DNA of 64,000 nucleotides from Rhodobiaceae bacterium. Its GTDB lineage: Bacteria > Pseudomonadota > Alphaproteobacteria > Rhizobiales > JAKPQE01. Shown piece by piece: positions 2,960 to 35,519 of the stretch. The DNA lies in the NCBI GenBank assembly GCA_028278505.1, contig JANQEG010000074.1, positions 3,175 through 67,174 on the forward strand, read 5' to 3'. Numbering within the stretch: position 1 is the first letter of the stretch; each line of letters begins with the position of its first letter. The translations under genes and the position numbers were made by a program. The notes below the pieces were generated by a model that saw only the letters and a program-made list of their open reading frames with translations, made no database searches and was not told the origin of the DNA.

Positions 2960-3034
2960 TGGTGGGCGCGACTGGGATTGAACCAGTGACCCCTACGATG
3001 TCAACGTAGTGCTCTCCCGCTGAGCTACGCGCCC
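2960..3034 (-). tRNA. tRNA-Val (anticodon GAC)
   Basis: Minus strand gggcgcgtagctcagcgggagagcactacgttgacatcgtaggggtcactggttcaatcccagtcgcgcccacca. Hand-folded cloverleaf with anticodon loop ttGACat and an encoded CCA. Confidence 0.95.
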
Positions 3035-4697: not shown

Positions 4698-4751
4698 TCG
4701 AGTGCGAAGAAAAGTCCTCCGCTGCGCCTGAGTGTACTTTCTTCACGGCCC

Positions 4752-4900
4752 TGAAAAGAAAAGGGGCCGCACTCGCGAGCGAGGCGGCCCAAGTCTAGGG
4801 AGGAAACGCCCAAGGAGGGCAGCGATATGACGGAACCGCCATATCGCACCGCAATAAGATGGCATCGGGTACCCCCCTGGTCAACCCCCAACGTCTTCGC
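4752..4900 (-). ncRNA. candidate trans-acting sRNA with two CCUCC anti-Shine-Dalgarno motifs
   Basis: Minus strand has TTGCCC-N17-GGTATA (4935-4907). A perfect 8-bp hairpin gcgatatg/catatcgc follows. A single-stranded gCCCUCCUUgggcguuuCCUCCCuag stretch comes next. It ends in terminator gggccgc-N13-gcggccc plus CTTTTCTTTTC (4790-4752). Confidence 0.35.
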
Positions 4901-20200: not shown

Positions 20201-20372
20201 CGATCTCGACCGCGGTGGCGCCGGGATAGGCGACGGTGATTTCGACCGTGTCGTTCTTCAGATCGGGAAAGGTCGCCCGCTTCAGCGCCGGATAGGCCGC
20301 CAGGCCGATCACGAAAATCGCGATCATGGTGAGGTTGGCGGCGACCGGATGGCGCGCGAAATAGCCGATCAT
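17229..20372 (-). CDS. RND efflux permease (AcrB/AcrD/AcrF family)
   Basis: 1047 aa, with 12-TM and two-large-loop architecture. Overlaps the upstream adaptor gene by 4 nt. Confidence 0.9.
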   Translation of the reverse strand: MIGYFARHPVAANLTMIAIFVIGLAAYPALKRATFPDLKNDTVEITVAYPGATAVEIEGAICARIEDALEGTVDLVETQCDSRENIAIATAEMEETGDIVRFLDDVSSAIDGIDDFPDDIEKPVVREVGRTEFVASVMVTGPRSPTDLKALAEDIKDRVIRAGVASKVTIGGFSDRQIRISVSAARLRAYGLSVSELADRIGRLSIGQPVGLIEGGNGDFLLRIDDERTDVRAFADLVVVTSDAGANIRLGDIATVTDLFDRPEDMVLFNGRRAAVLDVEKTKAEDTLDVADAIAAFVAAERKRLPAGAEIDVARDSATIVRNRLNLLLRNGAQGLVLVFLVLWLFFSLRFSFWVAMGLPVSFLGAIAAMWLIGYSINMLTMVGLLVAIGLLMDDAIVISENIAVHLRRGENRIKSAVNGTLEVLPGVAASFITTMFVFGALAFISGDIGQILRVIPVVLIFTLAVSLIEAFLILPNHLSHSLHHASTRQSRFRSAFDKGFQRYGVGIFGRLADLAVRWRYLTLGLSFLLLLLTLALPAGGFLKFVAFPEIDGDIVEARLILPQGTPLGRTQAAVAAIDAGIAAVDAEFTPRQPDGQKLVKAVTVLYGQNPDAFETGPHVVRVIVDLLSAELRTGTTDDIIALWRRETGEIADAISLKFTESTIGPGGRAIDLRLSGDDLDQLKSAALEFKSYLAGFKGVFDLSDDLRPGKPEVTITLKDGAGALGFDSRMIAQQLQAAFQGVKVDDLQIGPESYEIEVRTMAGARDELADLDRFTLIGPGGDLVPLEAVATIEQRRSWGRINRVNGRRAVGIIGDVDGRIANANEIVGEAQAQFLPDLIARYPGIDYAVEGQNKEGAVTSASILRNISFGLIGVYLLLAFQFRGYFAPVIVMVVIPSSVVGAFLGHWLTGLNLSMPSIVGVASLAGVVVNNSILLVQFMDGARARGASAAEAAGEATRRRFRPIVLTTATTVAGLIPLLSETSLQAQVLIPLATSLAYGLAVASIISVLVVPAVYCIFDDLGLRRLEEDEDDGVTAESGAAALPSG

Positions 20373-21706
20373 TGCCCTGCTCCGGCCTCGGCGGCGAGTG
20401 CCGATTGCGCGTCTTCGTCGGTGACCGGGTTAAGCAGCATCCCGTCGACCGCCGGGATGAGATCGGAGACGACCAGGGTTTCGCCGCCGGCAAGGCCGTC
20501 GACGACCGGAACAATGCCGTTGGTGTGCGGTCCTGTCCGGACGCTGCGGATGTCGAGGCGGTTTTCGTCGTCAACCAGATAGACGGCCGCGCCGTGCAGC
20601 GCCGTCCGCGGTACGACAATGCGGCCGGGTTGCGCCTTGCCGCTGATCTCGACCTCGACGAACATGCCGTTGACCAGCGGCGGCCGCGCGCCGCCCTTGA
20701 TGTCCTCATAGGGCCGGTCGACGGCGATGACGACGCCGACGGTCCGCGTCTTCTGGTCGAGGGCGCCGGCTATGCGCAGGAACTCGCCGGGCCATTCGAT
20801 GCTGTTGTTGCCGATATCGAGCCTGACCACCGGCCGGAAGCCGGCGCGCTCGGGCAATTCCTTCGACGATTTCAGCGGGTCGATGACGAAATCGGGATCT
20901 TGCGGAAACAGCGAGGCGAGCCGGTCGATCGACAGCGGCACGGTGATTTCGACCCGGTTGATCGAATCGCCGACGAACAGGGTCTGACCGGTGCTGACGA
21001 ACTGCGCCAGCTCGACGGCGACCTCGCGTACGCGGATATCGAACGGGGCGCGGATCACCGTGTTGTCGAGATCGAGCCGGGCACTGGCGATCTGCGCCTC
21101 CAGCACGTTGATCTGGGCCGGGATCAGCGCCAGCTTGCTGCGCTCATTCTGCACCGCCTGGCGCGAGGCAAGCACCGTGCGTTCGGCGGCGTCGACATTG
21201 CTCTGCGCCGTCGTTCCGCGGGCGGCGAGGTTCTTCTTGCGCTCCAGATCGGCTTCAACGAGCGCCAGATTGCGCTCCTCGATCGCCAGCGAAGCCTTGC
21301 CGTTCTCGTTCTCGATCTCTTTTTGTGCAAGTTGCGCCTGCAATTCTGCAAGCGCGAGTTTAAAGGCGGCGGGATCGATTTTGATCAGGACTTCGCTCTT
21401 GGCGATGATCGAGCCGTCGCGCAAGAGCGGGTGAACCTCGATGATCCGGCCCGGGACCTCCGCGACCGCGTTCCACGAATGCTCCGGCTTGACCGTTCCG
21501 AAACCGTTGACGCGGGGGACGAGATCGAGCTTCGGCACCTCTATAACCCGCACCTTGCGGCCGATTTCGGCGGCCTCGGTGCGTTCCGGTCCGGGTTTGC
21601 TGCCGGCCGCCATCACCAGCACGGAAATGCCGAGCGCAATGGGCGCGGCGACGGCGATGAGCCGTCCGGCAATCGTCAGTATTCCCGCCATCTCCGGTCC
21701 CTTCAC
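20369..21706 (-). CDS. RND efflux periplasmic adaptor (MFP/HlyD family)
   Basis: N-terminal anchor, coiled-coil (LAELQAQLAQKEIENENGK...), then a beta-barrel region. Translationally coupled to the RND permease. Confidence 0.85.
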   Translation of the reverse strand: MKGPEMAGILTIAGRLIAVAAPIALGISVLVMAAGSKPGPERTEAAEIGRKVRVIEVPKLDLVPRVNGFGTVKPEHSWNAVAEVPGRIIEVHPLLRDGSIIAKSEVLIKIDPAAFKLALAELQAQLAQKEIENENGKASLAIEERNLALVEADLERKKNLAARGTTAQSNVDAAERTVLASRQAVQNERSKLALIPAQINVLEAQIASARLDLDNTVIRAPFDIRVREVAVELAQFVSTGQTLFVGDSINRVEITVPLSIDRLASLFPQDPDFVIDPLKSSKELPERAGFRPVVRLDIGNNSIEWPGEFLRIAGALDQKTRTVGVVIAVDRPYEDIKGGARPPLVNGMFVEVEISGKAQPGRIVVPRTALHGAAVYLVDDENRLDIRSVRTGPHTNGIVPVVDGLAGGETLVVSDLIPAVDGMLLNPVTDEDAQSALAAEAGAGQ

Positions 21707-21921
21707 ACCCCGTCACAACGATCGCAAACAGGGTGTCTATAGTCGCTTCGTTTCGCGGTGACAAAAAAACGGCAAATTGCTCAAACTTTTGCCATGAGGG
21801 TGTAAAGCGATTGACCGAACGCCATACATCCATCACATTCCGCCCAGTCTGAATGCTGACGGACTGTAATCGGCGGCGGCAGCGGCCGCCAGTGATCTTC
21901 CGCAAACTGTTGGGAACGCCT

Positions 21922-23709
21922 ATGCCGGCAGATATCACGGCAATTCTCGATCGATACGGTGCCGACCGGACCCGACTGCTCGACATGTTGTGGGCGGTCC
22001 AGGATGCCGACGGCCACATCACTCAGCCGGCAATCGAAGGCCTGGCCGCCGGGCTTTCGCTGTCGCGCGCCGAGATCGAGGAAACCGTCAGCTTCTACCA
22101 TTTCTTTTCGATGCAGCCGGCCGGCCGCCACCGCATCTATCTCAACAACGATGTTTCGACGCAGTTAAGCGGTCGCTACGAGGCGGTCCGCGACGCCTTC
22201 GAGGAGGCCTGCGGCTGCACTTTCGGCACGGTCAGCGCCGACGGCCGCTTCGGCCTTTACGACACCGCCTGCATCGGCATGTGCGACCGCGAACCGGCGG
22301 CGCTGATCGATTTCGTTCCGTTCACCGATCTGACGCCGGAGCGGGTGGCGAAGATCGTCGCGAGCCTCAAGGACGGTGTCGCGACGAAATCGCTCGCGGC
22401 AGCATTCGACAGCGGCTGCGATGTCGTCACCACCAGATGGCAGCGGACCGGACCGGTGTTCGATCCCAGAACCGCCGCCGGGCCGTCGCTGGAGGCGCTG
22501 TTTTCACTCGCCCCCGGGGAAATCCTCGAGGCGGTGGCCGCATCGGGCCTGCGCGGGCGCGGCGGCGCCGGTTTTTCGACCGGGCTCAAATGGCGCCTCT
22601 GCCGCGAGACGAAGGCGGCAACCCGCTATGTCGTCTGCAACGCCGATGAGGGCGAGCCCGGAACCTTCAAGGATCGCGCCCTGTTGACCGATATGCCGCA
22701 TCTGCTGATCGAGGGCATGGTCGCAGCGGCTTACGCGATCGACGCCAGCGCCGGCGTCATCTATCTGCGCGCCGAATACCGCTATCTGTTCGATCGCCTG
22801 GACTCGCTCATCGCCGACTACCGCAAGGCCGGCTGGCTCGGCCACAACATCGCCGGCAGCGGCTTTGATTTCGACCTCCGCCTTCAGCTCGGCGCCGGCT
22901 CCTATGTCTGCGGCGAGGAATCGGCGCTGATCGAGTCGATGGAAGGCAAGCGCGGCAGCCCGCGCAACCGCCCGCCCTTTCCGGTCGAGGCCGGTTTTTG
23001 CGGCATGCCGACGATCGTCAACAATGTCGAAACGCTGGCCGCGGTGCCGCGCATCCTCAAAGAGGGCGCCGATTGGTATGCCGGTTTCGGCACCGAGAAA
23101 TCGCCGGGCACCAAGCTGTTGAGTGTCGCCGGTGATTGCGCCCGCCCGGGCATTTACGAGGTGCCTTTCGGCATCACCGTCGGCGAATTCCTCGACATGG
23201 TCGGCGCCGAGCCGGCGCTGGCGCTGCAGGTCAGCGGCCCCTCGGGCGAATGCATCAATGCGGCGCAATCCCGGCATCGCCGGCTTTGCCACGAGGATCT
23301 GTCGATCGGCGGCGCCATGACGGTGTTTTCCGCAGAGCGCGACCTGCTCGACCATATGAGCCGGTTCCTGTCCTTTTTCATCGCCGAATCCTGCGGCATC
23401 TGCACGCCATGCCGGTCGGGCAATGTGGCAATGAAGACGCTGCTCGAACGGCTCCGCGACGGCCGCGGCGAACAGCGCCATCTGGCCGACCTCGAACGTT
23501 GGGGCCATATCATCGCCGAGACGAGCCGCTGCGGGCTCGGGGCGTCGGCTCCCAATCCGGTGCTGTCGAGCCTGCGCGAATTCCCCGATCTCTATGCGGC
23601 GCTCGTCGACGGCCGCGAGGCGGAGATGTTCGTGCCCGGCTTCGATCTCGATGCGAGCACCGGCGACTATCGCCGCATCGTCGAAAGGGCGCGCAGCAAT
23701 GGCCGATGA
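21922..23709 (+). CDS. hoxF: NAD-reducing [NiFe]-hydrogenase diaphorase subunit HoxF (fused NuoE-like and NuoF-like domains)
   Basis: NuoE-like N-terminus (LLDMLWAVQD...VSFYHFF). NuoF-like GRGGAGFSTGLKW and CNADEGEPGTFKDR. Cluster motif ESCGICTPCR. Confidence 0.85.
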   Translation: MPADITAILDRYGADRTRLLDMLWAVQDADGHITQPAIEGLAAGLSLSRAEIEETVSFYHFFSMQPAGRHRIYLNNDVSTQLSGRYEAVRDAFEEACGCTFGTVSADGRFGLYDTACIGMCDREPAALIDFVPFTDLTPERVAKIVASLKDGVATKSLAAAFDSGCDVVTTRWQRTGPVFDPRTAAGPSLEALFSLAPGEILEAVAASGLRGRGGAGFSTGLKWRLCRETKAATRYVVCNADEGEPGTFKDRALLTDMPHLLIEGMVAAAYAIDASAGVIYLRAEYRYLFDRLDSLIADYRKAGWLGHNIAGSGFDFDLRLQLGAGSYVCGEESALIESMEGKRGSPRNRPPFPVEAGFCGMPTIVNNVETLAAVPRILKEGADWYAGFGTEKSPGTKLLSVAGDCARPGIYEVPFGITVGEFLDMVGAEPALALQVSGPSGECINAAQSRHRRLCHEDLSIGGAMTVFSAERDLLDHMSRFLSFFIAESCGICTPCRSGNVAMKTLLERLRDGRGEQRHLADLERWGHIIAETSRCGLGASAPNPVLSSLREFPDLYAALVDGREAEMFVPGFDLDASTGDYRRIVERARSNGR

Positions 23710-24397
23710 GGTAACCTTCTTCATTGACGGGCGCCCGTGCACGGCGGCGGCCGGCGACAATCTGGTCGAGGCGGCGGCGGACAACGGCGTCTACATCCCG
23801 ACGCTGTGTCATTACAAGGGCCACAAGCCGCTCGGCACCTGCCGCGTCTGCATGGTGCGGGTCGACGGCCGCGAGGCGGCGGCCTGCACCTTCGGCGTCC
23901 GTGACGGCATGCGCGTCGATGTCGACGCGCCGGAGCTCGCCGATGCCCGCAAGGCGCTGATCGAGTTGCTTTTCGTCGAGCGCAATCATTTCTGCCCGGC
24001 GTGCGAGAAGAGCGGGCGCTGCGATTTGCAGGCGGTCGCCTATCACATGCATCTGACGGTGCCGCGGTTTCCCTATCGCTACGTTCCGTTCACGGTGGAG
24101 AATTTCGCCGGCAAATTGCTCATCGATCACAATCGTTGCATACTGTGCGGGCGCTGCGAGGAATTCGTCCGCCGCGGCGACAGTAAGGTGTTCGCCATGA
24201 AGCAGCGCTCGTCGGAGGCGCGGATCACCGTCGATCTGGCGCTGCTGGCGGAAATGAGTGCGAACGAAATCGCGCATGCCGTGCATGTCTGCCCGGTCGG
24301 CGCGATCCTGGCGCCGGGACAGGGCTTCGACACGCCGATCGGGCGGCGCAAATACGACACGCACCGGATCGGAGAAATCACCGATGGACGGGACTGA
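23699..24397 (+). CDS. hoxU: hydrogenase diaphorase iron-sulfur subunit HoxU (NuoG N-terminal-like)
   Basis: VTFFIDGRPC...LCHYKGHKPLGTCRVCMV, HFCPACEKSGRCDLQ and CILCGRC. Overlaps the hoxF stop by 11 nt. Confidence 0.85.
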   Translation: MADEVTFFIDGRPCTAAAGDNLVEAAADNGVYIPTLCHYKGHKPLGTCRVCMVRVDGREAAACTFGVRDGMRVDVDAPELADARKALIELLFVERNHFCPACEKSGRCDLQAVAYHMHLTVPRFPYRYVPFTVENFAGKLLIDHNRCILCGRCEEFVRRGDSKVFAMKQRSSEARITVDLALLAEMSANEIAHAVHVCPVGAILAPGQGFDTPIGRRKYDTHRIGEITDGRD

Positions 24398-24950
24398 GGC
24401 GCCGCACAAGAAGCCGATCCTGGCGACGGTATCGCTTGCGGGATGTTTCGGCTGCCACATGTCGCTGCTCGACGCCGATGAGCGCATTCTCGATGTGCTG
24501 GCCGCGTTCGAACTGCACCGCTCGCCCCTGACCGACATCAAGCGCTTCGCCAAGCGCTGCGATGTCGGGCTGATCGAGGGCGGTTGCTGCAACGACGAAA
24601 ATGTCCACGTGCTGCGCGAATTCCGCGAGAATTGCGACGTGCTGGTCGCCGTCGGCGCCTGTGCCATCAATGGCGGCCTGCCGGCGCTGCGCAACGAGAT
24701 CGGCCTGGAGGCCTGCCTCACCGAGGCCTATCTGGAGATGCCGACGGGCGCCGGCGCCGAGGGCATCATTCCCGCCGACGCCGACATCCCGAAGCTGCTC
24801 GACCGGGTCTATCCCTGCCACGAGGTGGTAAAAATCGATTATTTCCTGCCCGGCTGCCCGCCCCCGGCAGATGCCTTTTGGGCGCTGCTGACGGCGCTGG
24901 CGGCCGGACGCGCCCCCGATCTGCCGACGGAGCTGATCCACTACGATTAG
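24384..24950 (+). CDS. hoxY: [NiFe]-hydrogenase small subunit HoxY (group 3)
   Basis: ILATVSLAGCFGCHMSLLD...GGCCNDENV...VGACAINGG...LPGCPP. Overlaps hoxU by 14 nt. Confidence 0.85.
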   Translation: MDGTEAPHKKPILATVSLAGCFGCHMSLLDADERILDVLAAFELHRSPLTDIKRFAKRCDVGLIEGGCCNDENVHVLREFRENCDVLVAVGACAINGGLPALRNEIGLEACLTEAYLEMPTGAGAEGIIPADADIPKLLDRVYPCHEVVKIDYFLPGCPPPADAFWALLTALAAGRAPDLPTELIHYD

Positions 24951-25111
24951 CGCCGTTGCCGAAGCGACGGTTCGCGTTCGCGAAAAGGGGGGAACCGGTT
25001 TTCGAATGGGAATACGCGATCTAGATAAGGGGAGGGAGCGCTTTTTAAGGGTTTCGATCCAAGCAAGGAGCGCTCTCGCCGGACAAGCCAGAAAAGCCGC
25101 GGGGCAACGCC

Positions 25112-26572
25112 ATGAACACTGGGCAGAAAATCGTCATCGATCCGGTCACCCGCGTCGAGGGTCACGGCCGCATCACGGTTCATCTCGACGAGAACCATCA
25201 CGTCGAGGAGGCACGGCTGCACATCGTCGAGTTCCGCGGCTTCGAGAAGTTCGTGCACGGCCGGCCCTATTGGGAGGTGCCGGTGCTGGTCCAGCGGCTG
25301 TGCGGCATCTGCCCGGTCAGCCATCATCTCGCCGGCGCCAAGGCGATCGACGAAATCGTCGGCATCAGCCCCGGCAGCGACCACACGCTGACACCGACGG
25401 CGGAGAAGATGCGCCGGCTCATGCATTACGGCCAGGTGTTCCAGTCGCACGTGCTGCATTTCTTCTATCTGTGCTCGCCGGACCTTCTGTTCGGCATCGA
25501 CGGCGAGGTGGAAAGTCGCAACATTGTCGGCGTCGCCATGGCCGAGCCGGAACTGGCCAAGAAGGCGATCCTGATGCGCAAGTTCGGCCAGGAGATCATC
25601 CGCGCGACGGCGGGCAAGAAGGTGCACGGGATTTCCGCCGTGCCGGGCGGCATCCACAAGACGCTGTCGGCGGAGGAGCGCGACTATTTCCTCAACGGCA
25701 AGGAAATTCCGGCGATCGACACCATGATCGACTGGGCGCTCGAAGGGCTCGACTTCTTCAAGAGCTTCCACCGCGACAACCGCGAATGGCTCGACGGTTA
25801 CGCGGCGGTGCCATCGAGCCATATGGGCATGGTGCGCAAGGACGGAGCGCTCGACCTCTATCACGGCGACCTCAAAGTGGTCGACGCCGAGGGCACGCTG
25901 CTGCAGACCTTCGACTATCACGACTATCTGAACGAGCTCGGCGAAGAGACCAAGAGCTGGTCCTATATGAAATTCCCCTATCTGCGCAGCCTCGGCCGCC
26001 AAGACGGCTGGTACCGGGTCGGGCCGCTGCCGCGCCTCAACGTCTGCGAGTTCCTGCCCTCGCCGCTGGCGCAGAAGGAATTCGAGGCGTTCCGCGCCTA
26101 TACCGGCGGCCGCGCCAACAACATGTCGATGCACTATCACTGGGCGCGGCTGATCGAGGTCGTGCACGCAGCCGAAGTGATCCGCGACCTGCTGGCCGAT
26201 CCCGATCTGCAGAAGGACAATCTGATTGCCCGCGGGACGGCGGCGGGCGAGGGCATCGGCGTCGTCGAGGCGCCGCGCGGCACGCTCTTCCACCACTATA
26301 AGGTCGACGATGCCGGCCGCATCAATTTCTGCAATCTGATCGTCTCGACCACCAACAACAACACCGCCATGAACCGGGCGGTGGCGGCGGCGGCGGAGGA
26401 TCTGATGGAGGGCGTGCCCGAAGTCACCGAAGCGATGACCAATGGCGTCGAGGTGGTGCTGCGCGCCTATGATCCGTGCCTGTCCTGCGCCACCCATGCG
26501 GTCGGCCAGATGCCGCTCAGGATCGAGCTCTACGATGCCGGGGGTACGCTCCGCGATGTCCGGGTCAGGTGA
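25112..26572 (+). CDS. hoxH: [NiFe]-hydrogenase large subunit HoxH (group 3d-like)
   Basis: N-terminal RVEGHGRI and RLCGICPVSH. C-terminal DPCLSCATH followed by a cleavable extension. Confidence 0.9.
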   Translation: MNTGQKIVIDPVTRVEGHGRITVHLDENHHVEEARLHIVEFRGFEKFVHGRPYWEVPVLVQRLCGICPVSHHLAGAKAIDEIVGISPGSDHTLTPTAEKMRRLMHYGQVFQSHVLHFFYLCSPDLLFGIDGEVESRNIVGVAMAEPELAKKAILMRKFGQEIIRATAGKKVHGISAVPGGIHKTLSAEERDYFLNGKEIPAIDTMIDWALEGLDFFKSFHRDNREWLDGYAAVPSSHMGMVRKDGALDLYHGDLKVVDAEGTLLQTFDYHDYLNELGEETKSWSYMKFPYLRSLGRQDGWYRVGPLPRLNVCEFLPSPLAQKEFEAFRAYTGGRANNMSMHYHWARLIEVVHAAEVIRDLLADPDLQKDNLIARGTAAGEGIGVVEAPRGTLFHHYKVDDAGRINFCNLIVSTTNNNTAMNRAVAAAAEDLMEGVPEVTEAMTNGVEVVLRAYDPCLSCATHAVGQMPLRIELYDAGGTLRDVRVR

Positions 26573-27068
26573 GGCCGGGGCGAAGCGAATCCTGGTCTGC
26601 ACGATCGGCAATCCCGGGCGCGGCGATGACGGCCTCGGCTGGGCGTTCGCCGATGCGCTCGAAGCGCAATGCGGTGACACGCTCGACATCGAGCGCTGCT
26701 ATCAACTCGCGCCGGAAGACGCCGAGCGGTTCGCCCGCCGCGAACACCTGGTTCTGGTCGACGCCACCGTCGCCGCCGATGTCGAGACATTTCGCCGGCG
26801 TATGATTGTACCCGACGACGCCAATACGGCGGCGATTTCGAGCCATCGGCTCGATCCGGTCGCCGCCGTCACGCTCGCCGCCCGCCTCTACGGCCGGGCG
26901 CCGCGGACCGAACTCATCGAGATCCGCGGCTATCGCTTCGAACTCGATATCGGTCTGTCGGAGGCGGCTGCCGTCAATCTCGACCTTGCGCTTGCCGCCG
27001 CCGCCGACCTTGCCGGCGGGGAAACCGCGGCGATGTCACGCGACGACGCACCGATCGTCGAATCGTGA
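26556..27068 (+). CDS. hoxW: hydrogenase maturation endopeptidase HoxW
   Basis: RILVCTIGNPGRGDDGLGWAF motif. ATG 26556 overlaps the hoxH end by 17 nt. Confidence 0.75.
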   Translation: MSGSGEAGAKRILVCTIGNPGRGDDGLGWAFADALEAQCGDTLDIERCYQLAPEDAERFARREHLVLVDATVAADVETFRRRMIVPDDANTAAISSHRLDPVAAVTLAARLYGRAPRTELIEIRGYRFELDIGLSEAAAVNLDLALAAAADLAGGETAAMSRDDAPIVES

Positions 27069-28210: not shown

Positions 28211-28522
28211 CGACATACCGTGTTGAGCGGGACAATGGGTCCCTCACAAAAACCATTCCAGCAGGCTTGAAAACACAGTTGCCCGCTTCCGCGGGGACGG
28301 TGGGTGTTGTTGGCGTTTGCGTTTCAATTCAAACCTTCCCCGCGAAAGCGGGGAACCATTGGCGGTCGGGCATTCAGGAGCGTTCGAATGCCTTCACGAA
28401 TGCGTTGGCAAGTCGACAAGCCAATGGACCTCCCGGACAAGCCGGGCGGTGACGAGGGAGGGGTTGGGCGGTGACGAGGGAGGGGTTGGGTGGTGACAAG
28501 GGAGGGGTTGGGTGGTGACGCC
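28211..28522. repeat. mosaic repeat cluster including a 3 x 22-bp tandem repeat (28447-28512)
   Basis: The module shared with 7507-7565 lies at 28217-28315 and carries a roughly 40-bp insertion. It also has hairpin ccccgcgaaagcgggg and a reversed family A interior. Units cggtgacgagggaggggttggg x2, then tggtgacaagggaggggttggg. Confidence 0.8.
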
Positions 28523-28710
28523 GAGGCGAGAGGCCAACCTTTTGTCCAAGCCCCGTTCAGTCGAAAAAAGACGTCATCACGACAATAGCCAGTGGCGATC
28601 TTGGCCAATTGGATCGGATAGCACTGGTCCCAGGCCGGCCTGCGGCATTCTGTTGCACATTGCGGAAAACGCGGAATTCCGATTGCTGCGTAACGGCTTC
28701 CGGCCGCCGC

Positions 28711-28724
28711 TTGATATGCGTCAA
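28711..28724. promoter_or_regulatory. FNR/FixK-type box TTGATATGCGTCAA
   Basis: Fits TTGA-N6-TCAA and 9/10 of TTGAT-N4-ATCAA. Centred 55-76 bp upstream of the two candidate hynD start codons. Immediately followed by a 28-nt pure A/T run (28729-28756). Confidence 0.45.
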
Positions 28725-28771
28725 GGCGTTTTATTATTTATTATATTAATATATTAGTCGATAAGAATGAC

Positions 28772-29296
28772 ATGCTTTCGGGACTCCGGAATATGAACCG
28801 GGAAGACGAAGCTTGCCTTGAACACCGCCAGGCGAAAGTCCTGGTTCTCGGTGTCGGCAATATCCTCTACCGCGACGACGGGATAGGCCCGGCGGCGGTC
28901 TCGCAACTGGGCGCCGAGGGCATTCATGCGTCGTGCGCCGATTTCCTCGACGGCGGCACGATTGCGCTCTCGCTCCTGCCCGAGATCGAGGATCGCGACG
29001 CGTTGATCGTCGTCGATGCGGCGCGGCTCGACGCGCCGCCCGGAACGATCTGCATATTCGAAGGGATCGAGATGGATTCGCGGCTGACCGGCAGCCGGCG
29101 AAGCGTCCATGACGTCGCCGTCGCCGACGCCATGACGGCGGCGCAGCTTGCCGGGACCCTGCCCGAGCGGCGGGCGCTCGTCTGCGTCGCCCCGGAGACG
29201 GTCGATCTCGGCCTCGGCCTCAGCCCGGCGGTCGCTGCGGCGCTGCCGGAAACCTGCCGCACGATCGGCGGTCTGATCGAGAGGTGGTCGTCATGA
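28772..29296 (+). CDS. hynD: [NiFe]-hydrogenase maturation endopeptidase (HyaD/HupD/HynD family)
   Basis: VLVLGVGNILYRDDGIGPAAV, DGGT and ALIVVDAA motifs. An alternative start is ATG 28793. Confidence 0.8.
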   Translation: MLSGLRNMNREDEACLEHRQAKVLVLGVGNILYRDDGIGPAAVSQLGAEGIHASCADFLDGGTIALSLLPEIEDRDALIVVDAARLDAPPGTICIFEGIEMDSRLTGSRRSVHDVAVADAMTAAQLAGTLPERRALVCVAPETVDLGLGLSPAVAAALPETCRTIGGLIERWSS

Positions 29297-29730
29297 GCCG
29301 GTTCGCCAGGCCGCATTGGGTGGAGAAGATGTCGTCCGGCATGGCGAAGCCGCTCATCGGCGAGATTTCCGCAGCGCTCGACACGCTGGCCGCGACCGGC
29401 GTTGCCGGCGCCATCGATCTCTCCGGCCTGCCGCTGACCGCGACCGACCGCGCCGAACTTGAGGTGGCCCTCGGCAGCGGCGAGGTCGAAGCGAAAGTGA
29501 CGGCGGCCGGCACCAGCGAAATCCGCGAGACCGGCTTTGCCGGGGTGTGGTGGGTCCGGCATTTCGACGCCGGCGGCCGCGTGCTTGCCGAGATCCTTGA
29601 GATTGCGTTCGTGCCGCAACTGCTCGGCGCGCAAGGCGACGACATCGACGCTGCGGCAAGGCGGCTGCGCACGGAATTGGCGCGAACACCGGAACGAGAA
29701 ACCGGTCGGGAGACGGTTCATGCAGATTGA
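29293..29730 (+). CDS. HupH/HyaF C-terminal-domain-like hydrogenase accessory protein (single domain, 145 aa)
   Basis: LSGLPLTATDRAELEVALGSGEV...ETGFAGVWWVRHFD...LEIAFVP resembles the HupH_C/HyaF signature. ATGA overlap with hynD. Confidence 0.55.
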   Translation: MSRFARPHWVEKMSSGMAKPLIGEISAALDTLAATGVAGAIDLSGLPLTATDRAELEVALGSGEVEAKVTAAGTSEIRETGFAGVWWVRHFDAGGRVLAEILEIAFVPQLLGAQGDDIDAAARRLRTELARTPERETGRETVHAD

Positions 29731-30856
29731 CGAGACGACACCGAATGCGGCGCGGTCGGCCGCTTCAGGCGATGACCGGACGCTGGGCGCGCTGCTTGCC
29801 GCGCGCGGCGTATCGCGGCGGGCGTTCCTGAAATATTCGAGCTATCTCGCCTCGCTGCTGGCGCTGCCGGCGTCAATGGCGCCGGCGATGGCGGCGTCCC
29901 TGGCCAAGGCGCAGCGCCAATCGGTGATCTGGCTGTCGTTCCAGGAATGCACCGGCTGCACCGAATCGCTGACCCGCTCGCTGAGCCCAACGCTCGACGA
30001 CCTGATCTTCGACTTCATCTCGCTCGACTACCACCACACCCTGCAGGCCGCCTCCGGCCACGCCGCCGAAGAGGCGCGCATGCAGGCGATGGAGGCGCAT
30101 AAGGGCAAGTACATCGTCGCCGTCGACGGTTCGGTGCCGGTCAAGGATGGCGGCATCTATTCGACCATCGCCGGGATGAGCAATCTCGACATCTTAGAGG
30201 AAACCACCAAGGACGCCTTCGCCGTCGTGGCGATCGGCTCGTGTGCGGCGTTTGGCGGCCTGCCGCTCGCCGATCCCAATCCGACCGGCGCGGTGCCGGT
30301 CACCGAACTGGTCACCGACAAGCCGGTCATCAACATTCCCGGCTGTCCGCCCATCCCCGAAGCGATGGCCGCCGTGCTCGCCCATGTGCTCACTTTCGGC
30401 ATTCTGCCCGAGCTCGACAGCCTCGGCCGGCCGAAATCCTTCTATGGCGAATCGGTCCATGACCGCTGCTACCGGCGGCCGTTCTACGACCGCGGCGAGT
30501 TTGCCGAGAGCTTCGACGATGAAGGCGCGAAGAAGGGCTGGTGCCTCTACAAGCTCGGCTGCAAGGGCCCGGCCACCTCCAATGCCTGCGCCACGGTCAA
30601 GTGGAACGGCGGCACGAGCTTCCCGATCGAGGCCGGCCATCCCTGCCTCGGCTGCTCCGAGCCGGGCTTCTGGGACATGGGCGGCTTCTACAGGGCGCTG
30701 TCGGTGCCAACCGGGGACGTCGCCAGGATCGCCGCGGTCGCGGCCGGGGCCGGCGTCGTCGCCGGGGCGGCCGCCGGTGCGCTGCACCGGGCGACCAAGA
30801 GTGCGGCACGCGGCAAGCACCACACGGTCACGGTCGAGGAGCTGGAGGAAAAATGA
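29720..30856 (+). CDS. hynS: [NiFe]-hydrogenase small subunit, Tat-exported (Isp-type, group 1e-like)
   Basis: Twin-arginine signal GVSRRAFLKYSS, then WLSFQECTGCTESL, GSCAAFGG, PGCPP and C-terminal cluster cysteines plus a hydrophobic tail. Overlaps the upstream gene by 11 nt. Confidence 0.9.
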   Translation: MQIDETTPNAARSAASGDDRTLGALLAARGVSRRAFLKYSSYLASLLALPASMAPAMAASLAKAQRQSVIWLSFQECTGCTESLTRSLSPTLDDLIFDFISLDYHHTLQAASGHAAEEARMQAMEAHKGKYIVAVDGSVPVKDGGIYSTIAGMSNLDILEETTKDAFAVVAIGSCAAFGGLPLADPNPTGAVPVTELVTDKPVINIPGCPPIPEAMAAVLAHVLTFGILPELDSLGRPKSFYGESVHDRCYRRPFYDRGEFAESFDDEGAKKGWCLYKLGCKGPATSNACATVKWNGGTSFPIEAGHPCLGCSEPGFWDMGGFYRALSVPTGDVARIAAVAAGAGVVAGAAAGALHRATKSAARGKHHTVTVEELEEK

Positions 30857-31515
30857 TGACTGCGGTCGACTTCCTCGCCTTCACCCGCGGCCCGCTGTTC
30901 GACGTGGCGCTGATCATCTTCATCGCCGGCCTGGCGATCCGGTTCGTCGAGATCCTGGTGCTCGGCCGACGGCGCGATTTCTCCGAACCGCGCCGGGGCG
31001 GGTTCGGCAGCGGGCTCCGGACCATGTTCAGCCGGACGCTGCCCGAGACAGGCACCATGAAGCGTGCGCCGACGACGGTGGTCGCCGGCTGGGTGTTTCA
31101 TATCGGCTTCCTGGTGACGCTCCTGCTGTTCGTCCCGCATATCGAGATGTTCCAGGCGGTGCTCGGTTTCGGCTGGCCGGGCCTGCCGACGCCGATCATC
31201 GACTTTGCCGGCATCCTGGCGATGGTGGCGATGGTCGTGGTGCTGATCAACCGGCTGCGCAATCCGGTGATGCGCTTCCTTTCCGGCTTCGGCGACTACC
31301 TGCCGTGGCTCTTGACGTTCCTGCCGCTGATTACCGGCTGGCTCGTCTTCCACCGGCTGCTGCTGCCCTATCCCGCCATGCTCGGCCTGCACATCCTGTC
31401 GGTCGAGCTTTTGATGATCCTATTTCCCTTCACCAAGCTGATGCACACCTTCACCGCGTTCCTGGCGCGCTACTACACCGGTGCTGCTTTCGGCCGAAAG
31501 GGGGTGCAGTCATGA
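30853..31515 (+). CDS. isp1: Isp1-like integral membrane cytochrome b (NarI/DsrM-like)
   Basis: 220 aa with about 5 TM segments and conserved His residues in the helices. ATGA overlap with the hynS stop. Lies between the small and large subunit genes, as in Isp-type operons. Confidence 0.7.
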   Translation: MMTAVDFLAFTRGPLFDVALIIFIAGLAIRFVEILVLGRRRDFSEPRRGGFGSGLRTMFSRTLPETGTMKRAPTTVVAGWVFHIGFLVTLLLFVPHIEMFQAVLGFGWPGLPTPIIDFAGILAMVAMVVVLINRLRNPVMRFLSGFGDYLPWLLTFLPLITGWLVFHRLLLPYPAMLGLHILSVELLMILFPFTKLMHTFTAFLARYYTGAAFGRKGVQS

Positions 31516-32786
31516 GCGCGAATGTCGAGCGGGCGGTCAATGCCTTCAAGGAACAGATCGACGCGTCGACCGCGGCCTTCTTTTCGTCCTGCGTGCATTG
31601 CGGCCTATGCGCCGAGGCGTGCCTGTTCTACCTGGAGACCGGCGACCCGAAATATACGCCGATCCACAAGCTGGAGCCGCTGCGCCGGGTGTGGTGGAGC
31701 AGCTACACCCTGTTCGGCCGGCTTGCCTCGCTGATCGGCCTTGCGCCCAAGGTCACCGACGATCTGCTCAAGGACTGGAAGGAGCTGGTCTACGATTCCT
31801 GCTCTATGTGCGGCCGCTGCTCGATGGTGTGCCCGGTCGGTAACGACATTACCGGCATGATCCGTAAAGAGCGCGAGGGCATGATCGCCGCCGGCCATGC
31901 GCCGGACGGTCTGAAGGGCGCGTCGTCGCGTGCCATCAAGATCGGCAGCCCGATGGGCGTCACCCTGAAGGCGGTGAAGGCGCAGATCGGGCACCTCGAG
32001 GCCGATACCGGCATGACCATCCCCGTCAATGTCGAGGGCGCCGAATATCTGGTGCTGATGTCGTCGATGGAGATCATGAACTACCCGGAATATCTCGAAG
32101 CGATCGCCCGCATCTTTGAAGCGGCCGGGGCGAGCTGGACGATCGCCAGCGACGCCTTTGAGGCAACCAATTCCGGCATCCAGATCGGCGCCTCCGACAT
32201 CGCCCGGGAACTGGTCATGCGCATCGTTGCGGCGGCGGAGCGGCTCAAGGTCAAGACGGTGATCAGCCCCGAATGCGGCCACGCCTATACGGCGCTGCGC
32301 TGGGAAGGGCCGAACCTGATCGGCCGGCCGTTTCCGTTCAAGGCCCGCCACATCCTGGAAGTGCTCGACGAATTCCGCGCCGACGGCCGGCTTCAGACCG
32401 AAGGCTTCGAAGAAGACCGGCTGACCTTCCACGACCCGTGCCAGATCGTGCGCCGCGGCGGCGTCATCGACGAGCCGCGCCGGCTGATCGACATGGTCGC
32501 CAAGGACTTCGTCGAGATGGACGACAACGGCCGATACAATTGGTGCTGCGGCGCCGGCGGCGGCGTCAGCGCCATCGAAGAGGCGCACGATTTGAAGCTG
32601 ACCGCGTTCCTGAAGAAGAAGAAGCAGCTCGATGCGGTGAAACCCGAAAAGCTGATGACCGCCTGCGCCAATTGCCGCATCCAGCTCGAAGAGGGGATGG
32701 AGGAGACCGGCATGGACATCCCGGTCATCGGACTGACCGAGACACTCGCCGAACATTTGAAGACCCCGGAGACCGCGAAAGGATGA
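31512..32786 (+). CDS. isp2: Isp2-like iron-sulfur protein (HdrD/DsrK-like, 2x[4Fe-4S] plus CCG domains)
   Basis: CVHCGLCAEAC and CSMCGRCSMVCP ferredoxin motifs. CCG-type motifs HDPCQIVRRGG and NWCCGAGGG. ATGA overlap with isp1. Confidence 0.8.
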   Translation: MSANVERAVNAFKEQIDASTAAFFSSCVHCGLCAEACLFYLETGDPKYTPIHKLEPLRRVWWSSYTLFGRLASLIGLAPKVTDDLLKDWKELVYDSCSMCGRCSMVCPVGNDITGMIRKEREGMIAAGHAPDGLKGASSRAIKIGSPMGVTLKAVKAQIGHLEADTGMTIPVNVEGAEYLVLMSSMEIMNYPEYLEAIARIFEAAGASWTIASDAFEATNSGIQIGASDIARELVMRIVAAAERLKVKTVISPECGHAYTALRWEGPNLIGRPFPFKARHILEVLDEFRADGRLQTEGFEEDRLTFHDPCQIVRRGGVIDEPRRLIDMVAKDFVEMDDNGRYNWCCGAGGGVSAIEEAHDLKLTAFLKKKKQLDAVKPEKLMTACANCRIQLEEGMEETGMDIPVIGLTETLAEHLKTPETAKG

Positions 32787-33241
32787 CGACGATGGCGCAG
32801 ATCACGGATGACGGCGCCTTCCGCGCGGCGCTGGACGGATTGCCGATTGCCGATCAGCGCGCGGTCGGCGCGAAATTCGTCGAATCGGTCCTGCCCTTGA
32901 ACGATGACGGCCGCGTTCGCCGCGTCGTCGAGGCGGCGGCAAGCGGTGCGGCGGACACGCTCGACGATGCCTTCCACAACGCCCGGCGGGCCAGCATCGA
33001 CAGCCATGCGCGCTGCGGTTCGGAAGGCGATTGGCGCGCGCAGGCGGCCTATTTCGTCGCCCGCGCGGCGACCGCGATCGTCACCCCGGAAGGGCACGGC
33101 AAGACGGGCAACCTCGCCTGGGAGGCGGCAGCGGCGAGCCGCATGGCGCGGACCTGCAGCCTGATCGATGACGAGGCCGATCCGGGCGAGCGCGAGGCGC
33201 TGCGCCAGTATCGGATTCTGAACGACTACCTCGAACGGTGA
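32783..33241 (+). CDS. uncharacterised 152-aa protein embedded between isp2 and hynL
   Basis: ATG 32783 overlaps the isp2 stop (ATGA). Stop lies 14 nt before the hynL ATG. Codon usage is genome-like. Predicted soluble and Ala-rich/helical. No signal peptide and no metal-cluster cysteine motif. Confidence 0.6.
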   Translation: MTTMAQITDDGAFRAALDGLPIADQRAVGAKFVESVLPLNDDGRVRRVVEAAASGAADTLDDAFHNARRASIDSHARCGSEGDWRAQAAYFVARAATAIVTPEGHGKTGNLAWEAAAASRMARTCSLIDDEADPGEREALRQYRILNDYLER

Positions 33242-33255
33242 GGAGCGAGGCGGAA

Positions 33256-34974
33256 ATGACGGAACGTGTCGTAGTCGATCCCATTACCCGAATCGAGGGG
33301 CATCTGCGCATCGAGGCGCAGATGGAGGGCGACAAGATCGCCGAGGCCTATTCCTCCGGCACCATGGTGCGCGGCATCGAGATCATCCTCAGGGGCCGCG
33401 ACCCGCGCGACGCCTGGGCGTTCGCCCAGCGCATATGCGGCGTCTGCACGCTGGTCCACGGCATCGCCTCGGTGCGCGCGGTGGAAAACGCGCTCAACTA
33501 TCAGGTTCCGCCGAACGCGCAGATGATCCGCAATCTGATGATCGCGGCGCAATATGTGCACGACCACGTCATGCACTTCTATCATCTGCATGCGCTCGAC
33601 TGGGTCGACGTGGTCTCCGCGCTCGATGCGGACCCGAAGGCGACCTCGGAACTGGCCCAGGCGATCAGTTCCTATCCGAAATCCTCGCCTGGATATTTTG
33701 CCGACGTAAAGACCAAGCTGAAGGGCTTCGTCGACGGCGGCCAGCTCGGCATCTTCGCCAATGGCTATTGGGGCCATCCGGCCTACAAATTGCCGGCGGA
33801 AGCCAATCTGATGGCCGTCGCCCACTATCTGGAGGCGCTGACCTGGCAGCGCGACGTCGTCCAGATCCACACCATTTTCGGCGGCAAGAACCCGCATCCG
33901 AACTTCCTCGTCGGCGGCGTGCCGTCGCCGATCGACCTCAATTCGGATTCGGCGATCAATTCCAGGCGGCTGGCCGAGGTGCAGAACATCATTTCGCGTA
34001 TGCGCGCCTTCGTCGACCAGGTCTACGTTCCCGATACGCTGGCGATCGCGGGCTTCTACAAGGATTGGGGCGCGCAGGGCGAGGGCGTCGGCAATTTCCT
34101 CACCTATGGTGACTTCCCCGAAAAGGGCATGGACGATCCCTCGACCTATCTGGTGCCCTCCGGTGTCATCCTCAACCGCAATCTCGACGAGGTGCACGAG
34201 GTCGATTTGCACGCCGACGACCAGATCCAGGAGTTCATCGCCCATTCCTGGTACGATTACGAAAAGGGCGACAAGGCCGGCCTGCACCCCTATGCCGGCG
34301 AGACCGCGTTCAACTATACCGGCCCGAAGCCGCCCTTCGACCAGCTTGATGTCGGCAACGCCTATTCCTGGCTGAAATCGCCGCGCTGGCGCGGCCTGCC
34401 GATGGAGGTCGGCCCGCTTGCCCGGGTGCTGATGCTCTACGCCAAGGGCCATGACCAGACGCGCGAGCTCGTCGATATGACGCTGTCGCACCTGAACGTG
34501 CCGCCGGCGGCCTTGTTCTCAACGCTCGGGCGCACCGCGGCGCGGACGCTGGAAACGAAAATCTTCGCCGACACTATGCAGACCTGGTTCGACAATCTGG
34601 TCGCCAACATCAAGGCCGGCGACACCAGGACCCACAACGGCGCGAAATGGGAGCCCTCGACCTGGCCGGCGACGGCCCGCGGCGTCGGCATCATGGAGGC
34701 GCCGCGCGGCGGGCTCGCCCACTGGATCGTGATCGAGAACGGTAGAATCGCCAATTATCAGGCGGTGGTGCCGTCGACCTGGAACGCCGGCCCGCGCGAC
34801 GACAAGGGCCAGCCGGGGCCTTACGAGGCGGCGCTCGCCGGACATACGCTGCACGATCCCAAGCAGCCGATCGAGATCCTGCGCACGATCCACAGCTTCG
34901 ATCCCTGCATCGCCTGCGCCGTGCACGTCAATGATCCCGACGGCAACGAGCTGATCCGGGTCGATGTGAGTTGA
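33256..34974 (+). CDS. hynL: [NiFe]-hydrogenase large subunit (Isp-type, group 1e-like)
   Basis: ITRIEGHLRIE and RICGVCTLVHG. C-terminal DPCIACAVH followed by a 15-aa extension. RBS gaggagcgagg upstream. Confidence 0.9.
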   Translation: MTERVVVDPITRIEGHLRIEAQMEGDKIAEAYSSGTMVRGIEIILRGRDPRDAWAFAQRICGVCTLVHGIASVRAVENALNYQVPPNAQMIRNLMIAAQYVHDHVMHFYHLHALDWVDVVSALDADPKATSELAQAISSYPKSSPGYFADVKTKLKGFVDGGQLGIFANGYWGHPAYKLPAEANLMAVAHYLEALTWQRDVVQIHTIFGGKNPHPNFLVGGVPSPIDLNSDSAINSRRLAEVQNIISRMRAFVDQVYVPDTLAIAGFYKDWGAQGEGVGNFLTYGDFPEKGMDDPSTYLVPSGVILNRNLDEVHEVDLHADDQIQEFIAHSWYDYEKGDKAGLHPYAGETAFNYTGPKPPFDQLDVGNAYSWLKSPRWRGLPMEVGPLARVLMLYAKGHDQTRELVDMTLSHLNVPPAALFSTLGRTAARTLETKIFADTMQTWFDNLVANIKAGDTRTHNGAKWEPSTWPATARGVGIMEAPRGGLAHWIVIENGRIANYQAVVPSTWNAGPRDDKGQPGPYEAALAGHTLHDPKQPIEILRTIHSFDPCIACAVHVNDPDGNELIRVDVS

Positions 34975-35011
34975 GGGTGTTGGTGTTCGGGTCGGGGCGG
35001 GTGGCGGCGTG

Positions 35012-35106
35012 GCGCTGTCATCGTCATTGCGACCCCGGCGGAAGCCGGGGGAAGCAATCCAGTTCATTGATTTATTTTCTGGATTGCCGCGTCGCCTTCG
35101 GCTCCT
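35012..35106. repeat. palindromic repeat, family C (copy 2)
   Basis: cgtcattgcgaccccggcggaagccgggggaagcaatccag...ctggattgccgc...ctcgcaatgacg, immediately downstream of hynL. Confidence 0.8.
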
Positions 35107-35171
35107 CGCAATGACGACGCCGAGATCGTTGTTGCGCCCGCTTTCATCCGCTTCCGCTGCGCGTCAGCGGA

Positions 35172-35361
<190 letters not shown>

Positions 35362-35519
35362 GTATCGAAAACTCCGGCCGTTTTCGAGGCGGGCGGACCA
35401 TACACGCTCGACCTGTTGGCGGCAAGCGCGGAGCGGCGCCGGAATCCCGGCTTTTTCGCCCTTGTCGGCGGCCGGTCGGGCGGCGCGACATCAATCGCCA
35501 AAGGGACGAATCGCGCGCG

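Follow-up and report, generated by a model that had tools for sequence, protein, structure and literature searches.

The 64,000-nucleotide stretch of Rhodobiaceae bacterium DNA analysed here (contig JANQEG010000074.1, positions 3,175 to 67,174; hereafter the window) carries an Isp-type [NiFe] hydrogenase (hyn) operon in which an additional open reading frame (ORF) of about 150 codons lies between isp2, encoding a cytoplasmic iron-sulfur (Fe-S) protein, and hynL, encoding the hydrogenase large subunit. This ORF is a real gene under purifying selection and its product belongs to no known protein family. The family is best filed as a previously undescribed one within a known kind, the accessory proteins of hydrogenase operons, and for its function we tentatively propose a role in assembling or holding the large subunit.

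Codon usage, selection and conservation all bear on the coding status of the ORF. Its in-frame GC content at third codon positions (GC3) is 0.846, the neighbouring genes lying at 0.85-0.90, and the median ratio of non-synonymous to synonymous substitution rates (dN/dS) over 109 pairwise comparisons within six clades is 0.174, close to that of Isp1 (0.148) and about twice those of Isp2 (0.087), HynL (0.071) and the small subunit HynS (in the 0.07-0.09 range). Homologues 41-62% identical to the ORF product form 114 clusters among 5.8 billion proteins and, save for one fragment of 112 amino acids, are all 142-168 amino acids long; their annotations say nothing beyond ‘hypothetical’, except for three with a spurious label of 3'-phosphoadenosine 5'-phosphosulfate (PAPS) phosphatase. 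An exhaustive hidden Markov model search returned 214 family representatives at 50% clustering, 19 positions reach an identity of 95% or more in a set of 137 unique sequences, and syntenic orthologues were found in more than 140 loci. High-GC DNA yields many long spurious ORFs, and several overlap this very region on both strands, but the chance that we are dealing with an accidental open frame or an untranslated spacer is negligible, that reading being refuted by the conservation and codon evidence (a GC3 of 0.846, a dN/dS of 0.17, more than 140 syntenic orthologues) and further opposed by a confident AlphaFold model. An earlier, sequence-only reading of this stretch had staked the ORF on its conservation in orthologous operons and on a Ka/Ks or codon signal of coding, and that conservation was found.

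The same reading had described an ATG on the isp2 stop, a stop 14 nt before hynL and a product of 152 amino acids, all of which match the sequence: the ATG at 32783-32785 overlaps the isp2 stop TGA at 32784-32786 (ATGA), the ORF ends with the TGA at 33239-33241, and the 14-nt spacer before the hynL ATG at 33256 opens with GAGGAG. The overlap with isp2 thus exists, whilst the choice of start codon probably needs revision, the start conserved in the family lying 9 nt downstream. This in-frame ATG at 32792, 5 nt past the isp2 stop, encodes the start methionine of all homologues, and the protein collection holds an identical protein of 149 amino acids (P0001, with sources in NCBI and Logan). Since P0001 and all homologues begin there, the true start may be 32792 rather than 32783. 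A Shine-Dalgarno-like GAAAGGA, read directly from the sequence, lies 8-9 nt 5' of this ATG in the last codons of isp2. The upstream ATG stays plausible because the neighbouring hynS/isp1 (30853-30856) and isp1/isp2 (31512-31515) junctions are ATGA overlaps as well, like that between isp2 and the ORF (32783-32786). These three overlaps suggest that hynS through the ORF form one translationally coupled unit, and the coupling of the ORF itself is not in doubt, being tight with either start. Across loci, the spacer from the isp2 stop to the ORF start is -4 or -1 nt in 42 of the 90 scored, and that from the ORF stop to the hynL start is -4 nt or 10-16 nt in 79 of 95. Synthesis together with the structural subunits, as had been expected from the window alone, is thus borne out by the overlaps and by tight spacing conserved across loci. 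Over the whole operon (28300 to 35400) the + strand showed no terminator-like site, and Rfam gave no RNA element in the ORF region.

To assess the distribution of the family, each GTDB species was represented by one genome in the scan. Relatives of the ORF are encoded in 259 species genomes, of which the best 80 were examined at the level of the locus. All 80 have the ORF within a hyn cluster, hynD-hupH-hynS-isp1-isp2-ORF-hynL being the typical order: it lies between isp2 and hynL in 75 and directly after hynL in two, and the remainder are two Thiomargarita loci with hynL elsewhere and one contig that ends before hynL. Carriers among these 80 are gammaproteobacteria (Sedimenticolaceae, Chromatiaceae, Ectothiorhodospiraceae, three cultured Thiothrix species, Thiomargarita, three Solemya symbionts, Thiogranum, Sulfuricaulis and Arenicellales), betaproteobacteria (Thiobacillus and Hydrogenophilales) and, for the alphaproteobacteria, one Hyphomicrobiales metagenome-assembled genome (MAG). 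Divergent family members are likewise located in hyn clusters, as is the divergent copy in the complete genome of Ectothiorhodospiraceae bacterium BW-2, and Rhodobium orientis has a relative of 52% identity in its own hyn cluster.

Two rearrangements of this order were observed. Four loci (L027, L087, L110 and L128) read hynS-isp1-isp2-hynL-ORF, so that the ORF adjoins hynL and no longer isp2. The two Thiomargarita MAGs (L069, 7001-7441; L082, 5932-6375) have split operons in which hynS-isp1-isp2-ORF is followed by unrelated genes, namely those for a phosphotransferase system EIIA protein, hpf and rpoN in one and for a DAO-family oxidoreductase in the other, with no hynL within about 5-7 kb downstream. 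A DsrC-family gene is embedded in 12 hyn clusters (L002, L003, L035, L036, L043, L053, L054, L059, L061, L076, L087 and L128; for example at 4071-4454 in L002, 8223-8504 in L087 and 6603-6899 in L128), standing between hupH and hynS in Chromatiaceae-like loci and directly after hynL-ORF in L128. The copy inspected, that of L002, has two cysteines at its C-terminus. These embedded genes are in keeping with a proposed action of the DsrK-like Isp2 on a protein of the DsrC type.

The predicted protein of the window contains 20.4% Ala and 10.5% Arg, has cysteines only at positions 78 and 125, and reaches a maximal hydropathy of 0.64 over 19 residues; the median isoelectric point of the family is 5.0. 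Its sequence holds no transmembrane segment, signal peptide or twin-arginine motif, and since both a signal peptide and a transmembrane segment are lacking the protein is probably cytoplasmic. An AlphaFold2 model built on a 49-sequence alignment consists of seven helices (pLDDT, the predicted local distance difference test, 91.3; pTM, the predicted template modelling score, 0.88). The protein had been described as soluble, Ala/Arg-rich, probably helical and free of Fe-S, twin-arginine translocation (Tat) or transmembrane features, and composition, hydropathy, the structure model and the lack of any cofactor or twin-arginine motif bear this out. Its two cysteines, also remarked upon earlier, are both present in the window protein but do not form a conserved pair, C78 alone being invariant.

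This residue (codon 33014-33016) lies in a loop before helix 5, within the first of two conserved motifs (Table 1), is present in 134 of 134 hyn-linked sequences and is the sole invariant cysteine of the family. Position 125, at the end of the second motif, is Cys in 87 (64%) of the 137 unique sequences, Ser in 46 and Ala in 4; 30 sequences (22%) have Cys at position 119, H75 is variable, and in 39 hyn-linked members both 119 and 125 are occupied by residues other than Cys. Two candidate mechanisms were rejected on these counts. A redox dithiol formed by C78 and C125 conflicts with Ser or Ala at position 125 in 50 of 137 sequences and with the 39 hyn-linked members that lack Cys at 119 as well, and an electron-transfer subunit with an Fe-S or metal centre, which needs at least three conserved Cys/His ligands, conflicts with the conservation of C78 only. 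Because only C78 is invariant, a conserved dithiol or metal-cluster site is excluded. C78 could possibly serve on its own, as a reactive or contact residue of its conserved loop.

Searches against known families returned nothing above threshold in Pfam or NCBIfam, either for the ORF or for its 49 aligned members. Amongst the hydrogenase accessory families, HyaE/HupG (PF07449) gave no Pfam hit at E<=1 in the ORF or the 49 members, and the predicted fold is all-helical as opposed to thioredoxin-like; HybE/HupJ (PF11939) had no Pfam match in the ORF or the 49 members; for HyaF/HupH (PF04809), the ORF is without HupH_C, which is encoded by a separate gene of the same cluster (Table 1); and HypC/HupF (PF01455) had no Pfam match, the N-terminus of the ORF product, M(TTM)AQITDD, being free of Cys. 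The earlier reading could place the protein in no Hyp, Hup or Hya family and had named a clear match to a known accessory family such as HyaE/HupG as refuting its view; the Pfam, NCBIfam and PDB sequence and fold searches agree with it, and no such hit was obtained. Pfam likewise gave no match to DsrC/TusE (PF04358), for which the C-terminus of the ORF product has no Cys, and no similarity to TusA, DsrE or rhodanese in the family. There was no Pfam match to TorD/DmsD/NarJ, and Foldseek against the PDB gave no match with E<0.1 and none of this family.

The best Foldseek match in the PDB had an E value of 0.17 and a template modelling (TM) score of 0.37, and a profile search of PDB sequences gave as its best hit (E 0.021) a designed helical protein; both were rejected. 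Against BFVD, Foldseek recovered an unnamed phage protein and a protein with an Imm-5-like domain at TM scores of 0.58-0.64, root mean square deviations of 3.7-4.0 and marginal E values of 0.025-0.039. The name Imm-5 marks an immunity-protein family, and Pfam Imm5 had no match in the ORF family. DUF1266 (PF06889) appeared sub-threshold in seven of the 49 members (best 24.5 bits against a cut-off of 27) and in the window protein not at all; it was set aside after hhalign comparison with E. coli YbeR and YbeU gave a probability of 0.1, single-sequence templates making this a weak test.

A sister subfamily of about 162-182 amino acids, found in Halieaceae, Thiohalocapsa and others, is without C78 and has Y-C-R-M-A-R-T-C instead. 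The four loci of this subfamily (L088-L091; P0203, P0268, P0293 and P0297) show no link to hydrogenase genes, their neighbourhoods containing TauE, DsrE and DUF302 genes, housekeeping genes with a rhodanese gene about 7 kb off, or PAS/GGDEF/CheR signalling genes. The subfamily has hundreds of metagenomic members, all unannotated, and a wider profile including distant paralogues found only further unannotated proteins of about 163 amino acids. Because the paralogues stand alone in unrelated neighbourhoods, the fold is a general module, recruited into hyn operons by one lineage.

Operons without the ORF were sampled through Isp2, using 80 metagenome loci picked by Isp2 similarity (65-78% identity). 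Fifty-six of them contain the ORF, in 19 isp2 is followed immediately by hynL, and five were uninformative, so that about 75% of close Isp-type operons carry it (75 informative loci). Operons without it are spread over at least six separate lineages and include one (L145) whose Isp2 is 96% identical to that of an ORF-carrying locus (L068). Ca. Thiodiazotropha endoloripes also lacks the ORF and has a 45-nt spacer. The four structural genes of Thiocapsa bogorovii BBS have consecutive locus tags (PMC10892978). The ORF is common yet dispensable, since Thiocapsa, a model organism, and roughly one in four close operons do without it.

The function we consider possible, and hold only tentatively, is that of a dispensable, non-catalytic cytoplasmic assembly or holding factor for HynL or the HynL/HynS pair. 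A small acidic cytoplasmic seven-helix bundle of about 150 amino acids, accessory to Isp-type (group 1e) operons, would be synthesised together with the structural subunits via translational coupling to isp2 and hynL, and would bind the HynL precursor, or the HynL/HynS pair, in the cytoplasm ahead of Tat export. The invariant cysteine of the R-C-G loop and a conserved Arg/Trp/Gln surface would provide the contact surface, and the effect would be on the yield or robustness of the enzyme, which could be made without it. Both the binding partner and the chaperone role are what we infer from gene context and predicted structure. Repeated clean losses and a dN/dS above those of the catalytic subunits are the behaviour of an accessory gene; the accessory genes hynD and hupH share the cluster; and the ORF still adjoins hynL in the four rearranged loci. 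An electron-transfer subunit is disfavoured because there is neither a cofactor motif nor a conserved Cys pair, and the small uncharacterised genes of hydrogenase operons have as a rule proved to be maturation factors.

A further pointer comes from the losses. Where conservation in ORF-carrying operons is 97% or higher, HynL of ORF-less operons shows 1.27 as against 0.35 changes per 100 columns (3.6-fold), whilst HynS, Isp1 and Isp2 show no such excess, and the changes S131A, S143A and P175S/A recur in several independent ORF-less lineages. We regard this as a weak pointer to a partnership with HynL. Our comparative tests did not separate the three roles first suggested for the protein, a HynL chaperone, an adaptor between Isp2 and HynSL and a regulator of assembly.

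Several observations weigh against a HynL assembly factor. S131, S143 and P175 are equally conserved in E. coli Hyd-1 and the Allochromatium vinosum enzyme, and because they are conserved in Hyd-1 their conservation cannot stem from the ORF protein; we know of no homologue of the ORF in the Hyd-1 operon. The ORF stays with isp2 in the two Thiomargarita loci where hynL lies elsewhere, and its start overlaps the isp2 stop, so that its coupling to Isp2 is as tight as that to HynL. The fold is not hydrogenase-specific, paralogues occurring with no hydrogenase nearby, and PDB searches matched it to no known chaperone. Binding of HynL by the ORF protein is accordingly offered as a proposal.

The main rival, which we consider somewhat unlikely, draws on this attachment to isp2 and makes the protein a third subunit of the Isp1/Isp2 module, or a cytoplasmic partner that works with it through a thiol: Isp2 would take H2-derived electrons via Isp1 and reduce a persulfide or mixed disulfide on C78, or the protein would dock a DsrC-type substrate onto Isp2, and H2 oxidation would thereby be linked to cytoplasmic sulfur chemistry. 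The ORF directly follows isp2 with a stop/start overlap in 42 of 90 loci and is kept with it in the split Thiomargarita operons, Isp2 has a CCG domain and scores best against DsrK, HmcF and TmcB, and Isp1/Isp2 have been proposed to pass electrons to a DsrC disulfide (PMC5944118). The invariant C78 sits in its R-C-G loop beside conserved arginines, a DsrC-family gene occurs in 12 hyn clusters and directly after the ORF in L128, and three of the four paralogue contexts include TauE, DsrE or rhodanese genes nearby, although these sulfur-gene neighbourhoods are loose and few. Against such a partner, there is no conserved Cys pair and the 39 hyn-linked members with no Cys at 119 or 125 exclude a DsrC-like dithiol mechanism; there is no similarity to DsrC, TusA, DsrE or rhodanese; and DsrC-like genes coexist with the ORF, so DsrC is not replaced. 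Moreover, clean losses leave Isp2 intact with its conserved sites unchanged, which is unexpected upon loss of a dedicated substrate. More specific still, and to us doubtful, is the idea that the protein is the missing partner of Isp2, a single-Cys sulfur or thiol carrier or docking subunit whose C78 persulfide or mixed disulfide would be reduced by electrons from H2 that HynSL-Isp1-Isp2 carry across the membrane; if true, the Isp-type hydrogenase would be an H2:protein-persulfide oxidoreductase and the long-noted link between Hyn and sulfur metabolism would be explained.

The twin-arginine signal of HynS raises a different option, a Tat proofreading chaperone analogous to HyaE/HybE or TorD/DmsD that would hold the HynS precursor until mature HynL has docked. 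The cluster showed no gene of the HyaE/HybE type, and the protein is small, acidic, cytoplasmic and all-helical like the TorD family; Pfam nevertheless found no HyaE, HybE or TorD and Foldseek nothing like TorD, DmsD or NarJ in the PDB, the ORF never adjoins hynS, and HynS is unchanged in ORF-less operons, making this improbable. A regulator or sensor, for instance one that senses redox state through C78 and modulates the expression or activity of the hydrogenase, is very improbable: one invariant cysteine and one paralogue amongst PAS/GGDEF/CheR genes are set against the lack of any DNA-binding or signalling domain and a coupled placement among structural genes that implies near-stoichiometric synthesis, atypical of regulators.

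The operon into which the ORF is built is an Isp-type, group 1e [NiFe] hydrogenase operon, an assignment made because HynL is nearest to the membrane-bound hydrogenase of A. vinosum, its closest solved structure (3MYR_B, 985 bits). Pfam and NCBIfam further identified a small subunit with a Tat signal, and isp1 and isp2 between the subunit genes, and the gene order is conserved; the top NCBIfam models for isp2 were DsrK, HmcF and TmcB. In the window the cluster is an uninterrupted run on the + strand from the hynD-like gene to hynL (Table 1), and the relatives nearest to its hyn genes are Hyphomicrobiales and Kaistiaceae records.

Table 1. Features of the hyn cluster and of the ORF between isp2 and hynL, in window coordinates.
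Feature	Position	Strand	Remarks
hynD-like hydrogenase maturation endopeptidase (HycI family)	28772..29296	+	first gene of the conserved cluster
HupH_C-domain accessory gene	29284..29730	+	Pfam; conserved upstream of hynS
hynS, [NiFe] hydrogenase small subunit	29720..30856	+	twin-arginine signal (SRRAFLK), C-terminal hydrophobic anchor
isp1, membrane protein of NarI/TmcC/HmcE type	30853..31515	+	by family a b-type cytochrome
isp2, cytoplasmic HdrD/DsrK-like Fe-S protein, 424 aa	31512..32786	+	CCG and Fer4 domains
GAAAGGA, Shine-Dalgarno-like	32777..32783	+	upstream of ATG 32792
ORF between isp2 and hynL	32783..33241	+	152 aa from ATG 32783, 149 aa from ATG 32792
Motif 1, R-C-G-x-x-G-D-W-x-x-Q-A-x-Y-F-V-A-R-A-A (residues 77-96)	33011..33070	+	holds C78
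Motif 2, A-W-x-A-A-x-x-x-R-M-A-R-T-C (residues 112-125, helix 6)	33116..33157	+	R120, M121 and A122 invariant
hynL, [NiFe] hydrogenase large subunit, 572 aa	33256..34974	+	NiFeSe_Hases, 799 bits
HynL S131, S143 and P175 codons	33646-33648, 33682-33684, 33778-33780	+	at least 97% conserved in operons with the ORF

Directly upstream of the hyn genes, at 21853-27068 (+), lies what was judged by eye to be a second hydrogenase, resembling the Hox-type NAD-linked bidirectional [NiFe] enzymes. Its translations include hoxF/U/Y/H-like ORFs and a HoxW-like endopeptidase, also recognised by eye, and the HoxH-like ORF (25112-26572) starts ...DPVTRVEGHG and ends ...DPCLSCATH. Upstream of these genes, at 17229-21706 (-), an ORF resembling a resistance-nodulation-division (RND) type efflux transporter (1047 aa) and an adjacent membrane-fusion-like ORF (445 aa) were likewise identified by eye. 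The window also holds a tRNA-Ser(CGA) at 35272-35361 (-), about 300 nt downstream of hynL, a tRNA-Val(GAC) at 2960-3034 (-), near the window start, and an mmgR/suhB small RNA (RF00519; Rfam, 66.5 bits) at 4750-4827 (-), mmgR being an alphaproteobacterial family. This small RNA and the nearest relatives of the hyn genes make the window probably alphaproteobacterial in origin. Elsewhere, in metagenome contig L004, a group II intron-type reverse transcriptase (RVT_1, GIIM; 1224-2513) lies just upstream of the hyn cluster.

Many free-living and symbiotic sulfur oxidisers handle H2 chiefly with Isp-type (group 1e) hydrogenases, and carriers of the ORF include Thiothrix, Thiobacillus, Sedimenticolaceae, Solemya symbionts, Thiomargarita and purple bacteria. 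In the literature searched, DsrC has been proposed as the cytoplasmic acceptor of Isp2 but not demonstrated, and the ORF protein is a genetically testable candidate for a role in enzyme assembly or as Isp2 acceptor. Cultured carriers exist for such work (Rhodobium orientis, Thiothrix spp. and Ectothiorhodospiraceae BW-2), and the gene is also relevant to the heterologous expression of these thermostable hydrogenases. The same literature makes no mention of the ORF family and gave no match for the name ‘isp3’. The only similarities of the ORF, to Imm-5-like domains and DUF1266, are weak, and no assigned biochemical function was found for either.

Compared with the known hydrogenase accessory proteins HyaE/HupG, HyaF/HupH, HybE/HupJ, HupF/HypC and HupK/HoxV, the ORF product is alike in being small, cytoplasmic and without a cofactor motif, in being encoded inside, and co-expressed with, the operon of a Tat-exported group 1 hydrogenase, and in a presence that varies between related operons. 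HypC and HupK have a single invariant cysteine, as does the ORF family. It differs from these proteins in having no sequence relationship to them, in its all-helical bundle without a PDB match and in the position of its gene between isp2 and hynL, theirs lying in the downstream accessory block; with respect to HypC, it also lacks the essential N-terminal Cys2. The DsrC/DsrMK system offers a second parallel, the organisms here being sulfur oxidisers: a small cytoplasmic Cys protein beside a DsrK-like Isp2 and a DsrM-like Isp1, with DsrC-family genes present in some of the same clusters, whereas the ORF product has neither the DsrC fold nor its two-Cys C-terminal arm and retains one conserved Cys.

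The operons of Thiocapsa roseopersicina/bogorovii, A. vinosum and Acidithiobacillus ferrooxidans share with the window the four structural genes and their order. Model Isp-type operons have been described as consisting of four genes (PMC10892978, PMC7735108, PMC3325256), only isp1 and isp2 being reported between the subunit genes of T. roseopersicina, A. ferrooxidans and tubeworm symbionts, and the literature searched treats the operon as a four-gene unit because the model organisms have four. In contrast to these, the window and about three quarters of the sampled close relatives of this well-studied operon type carry a fifth gene, conserved and co-translated with the others.

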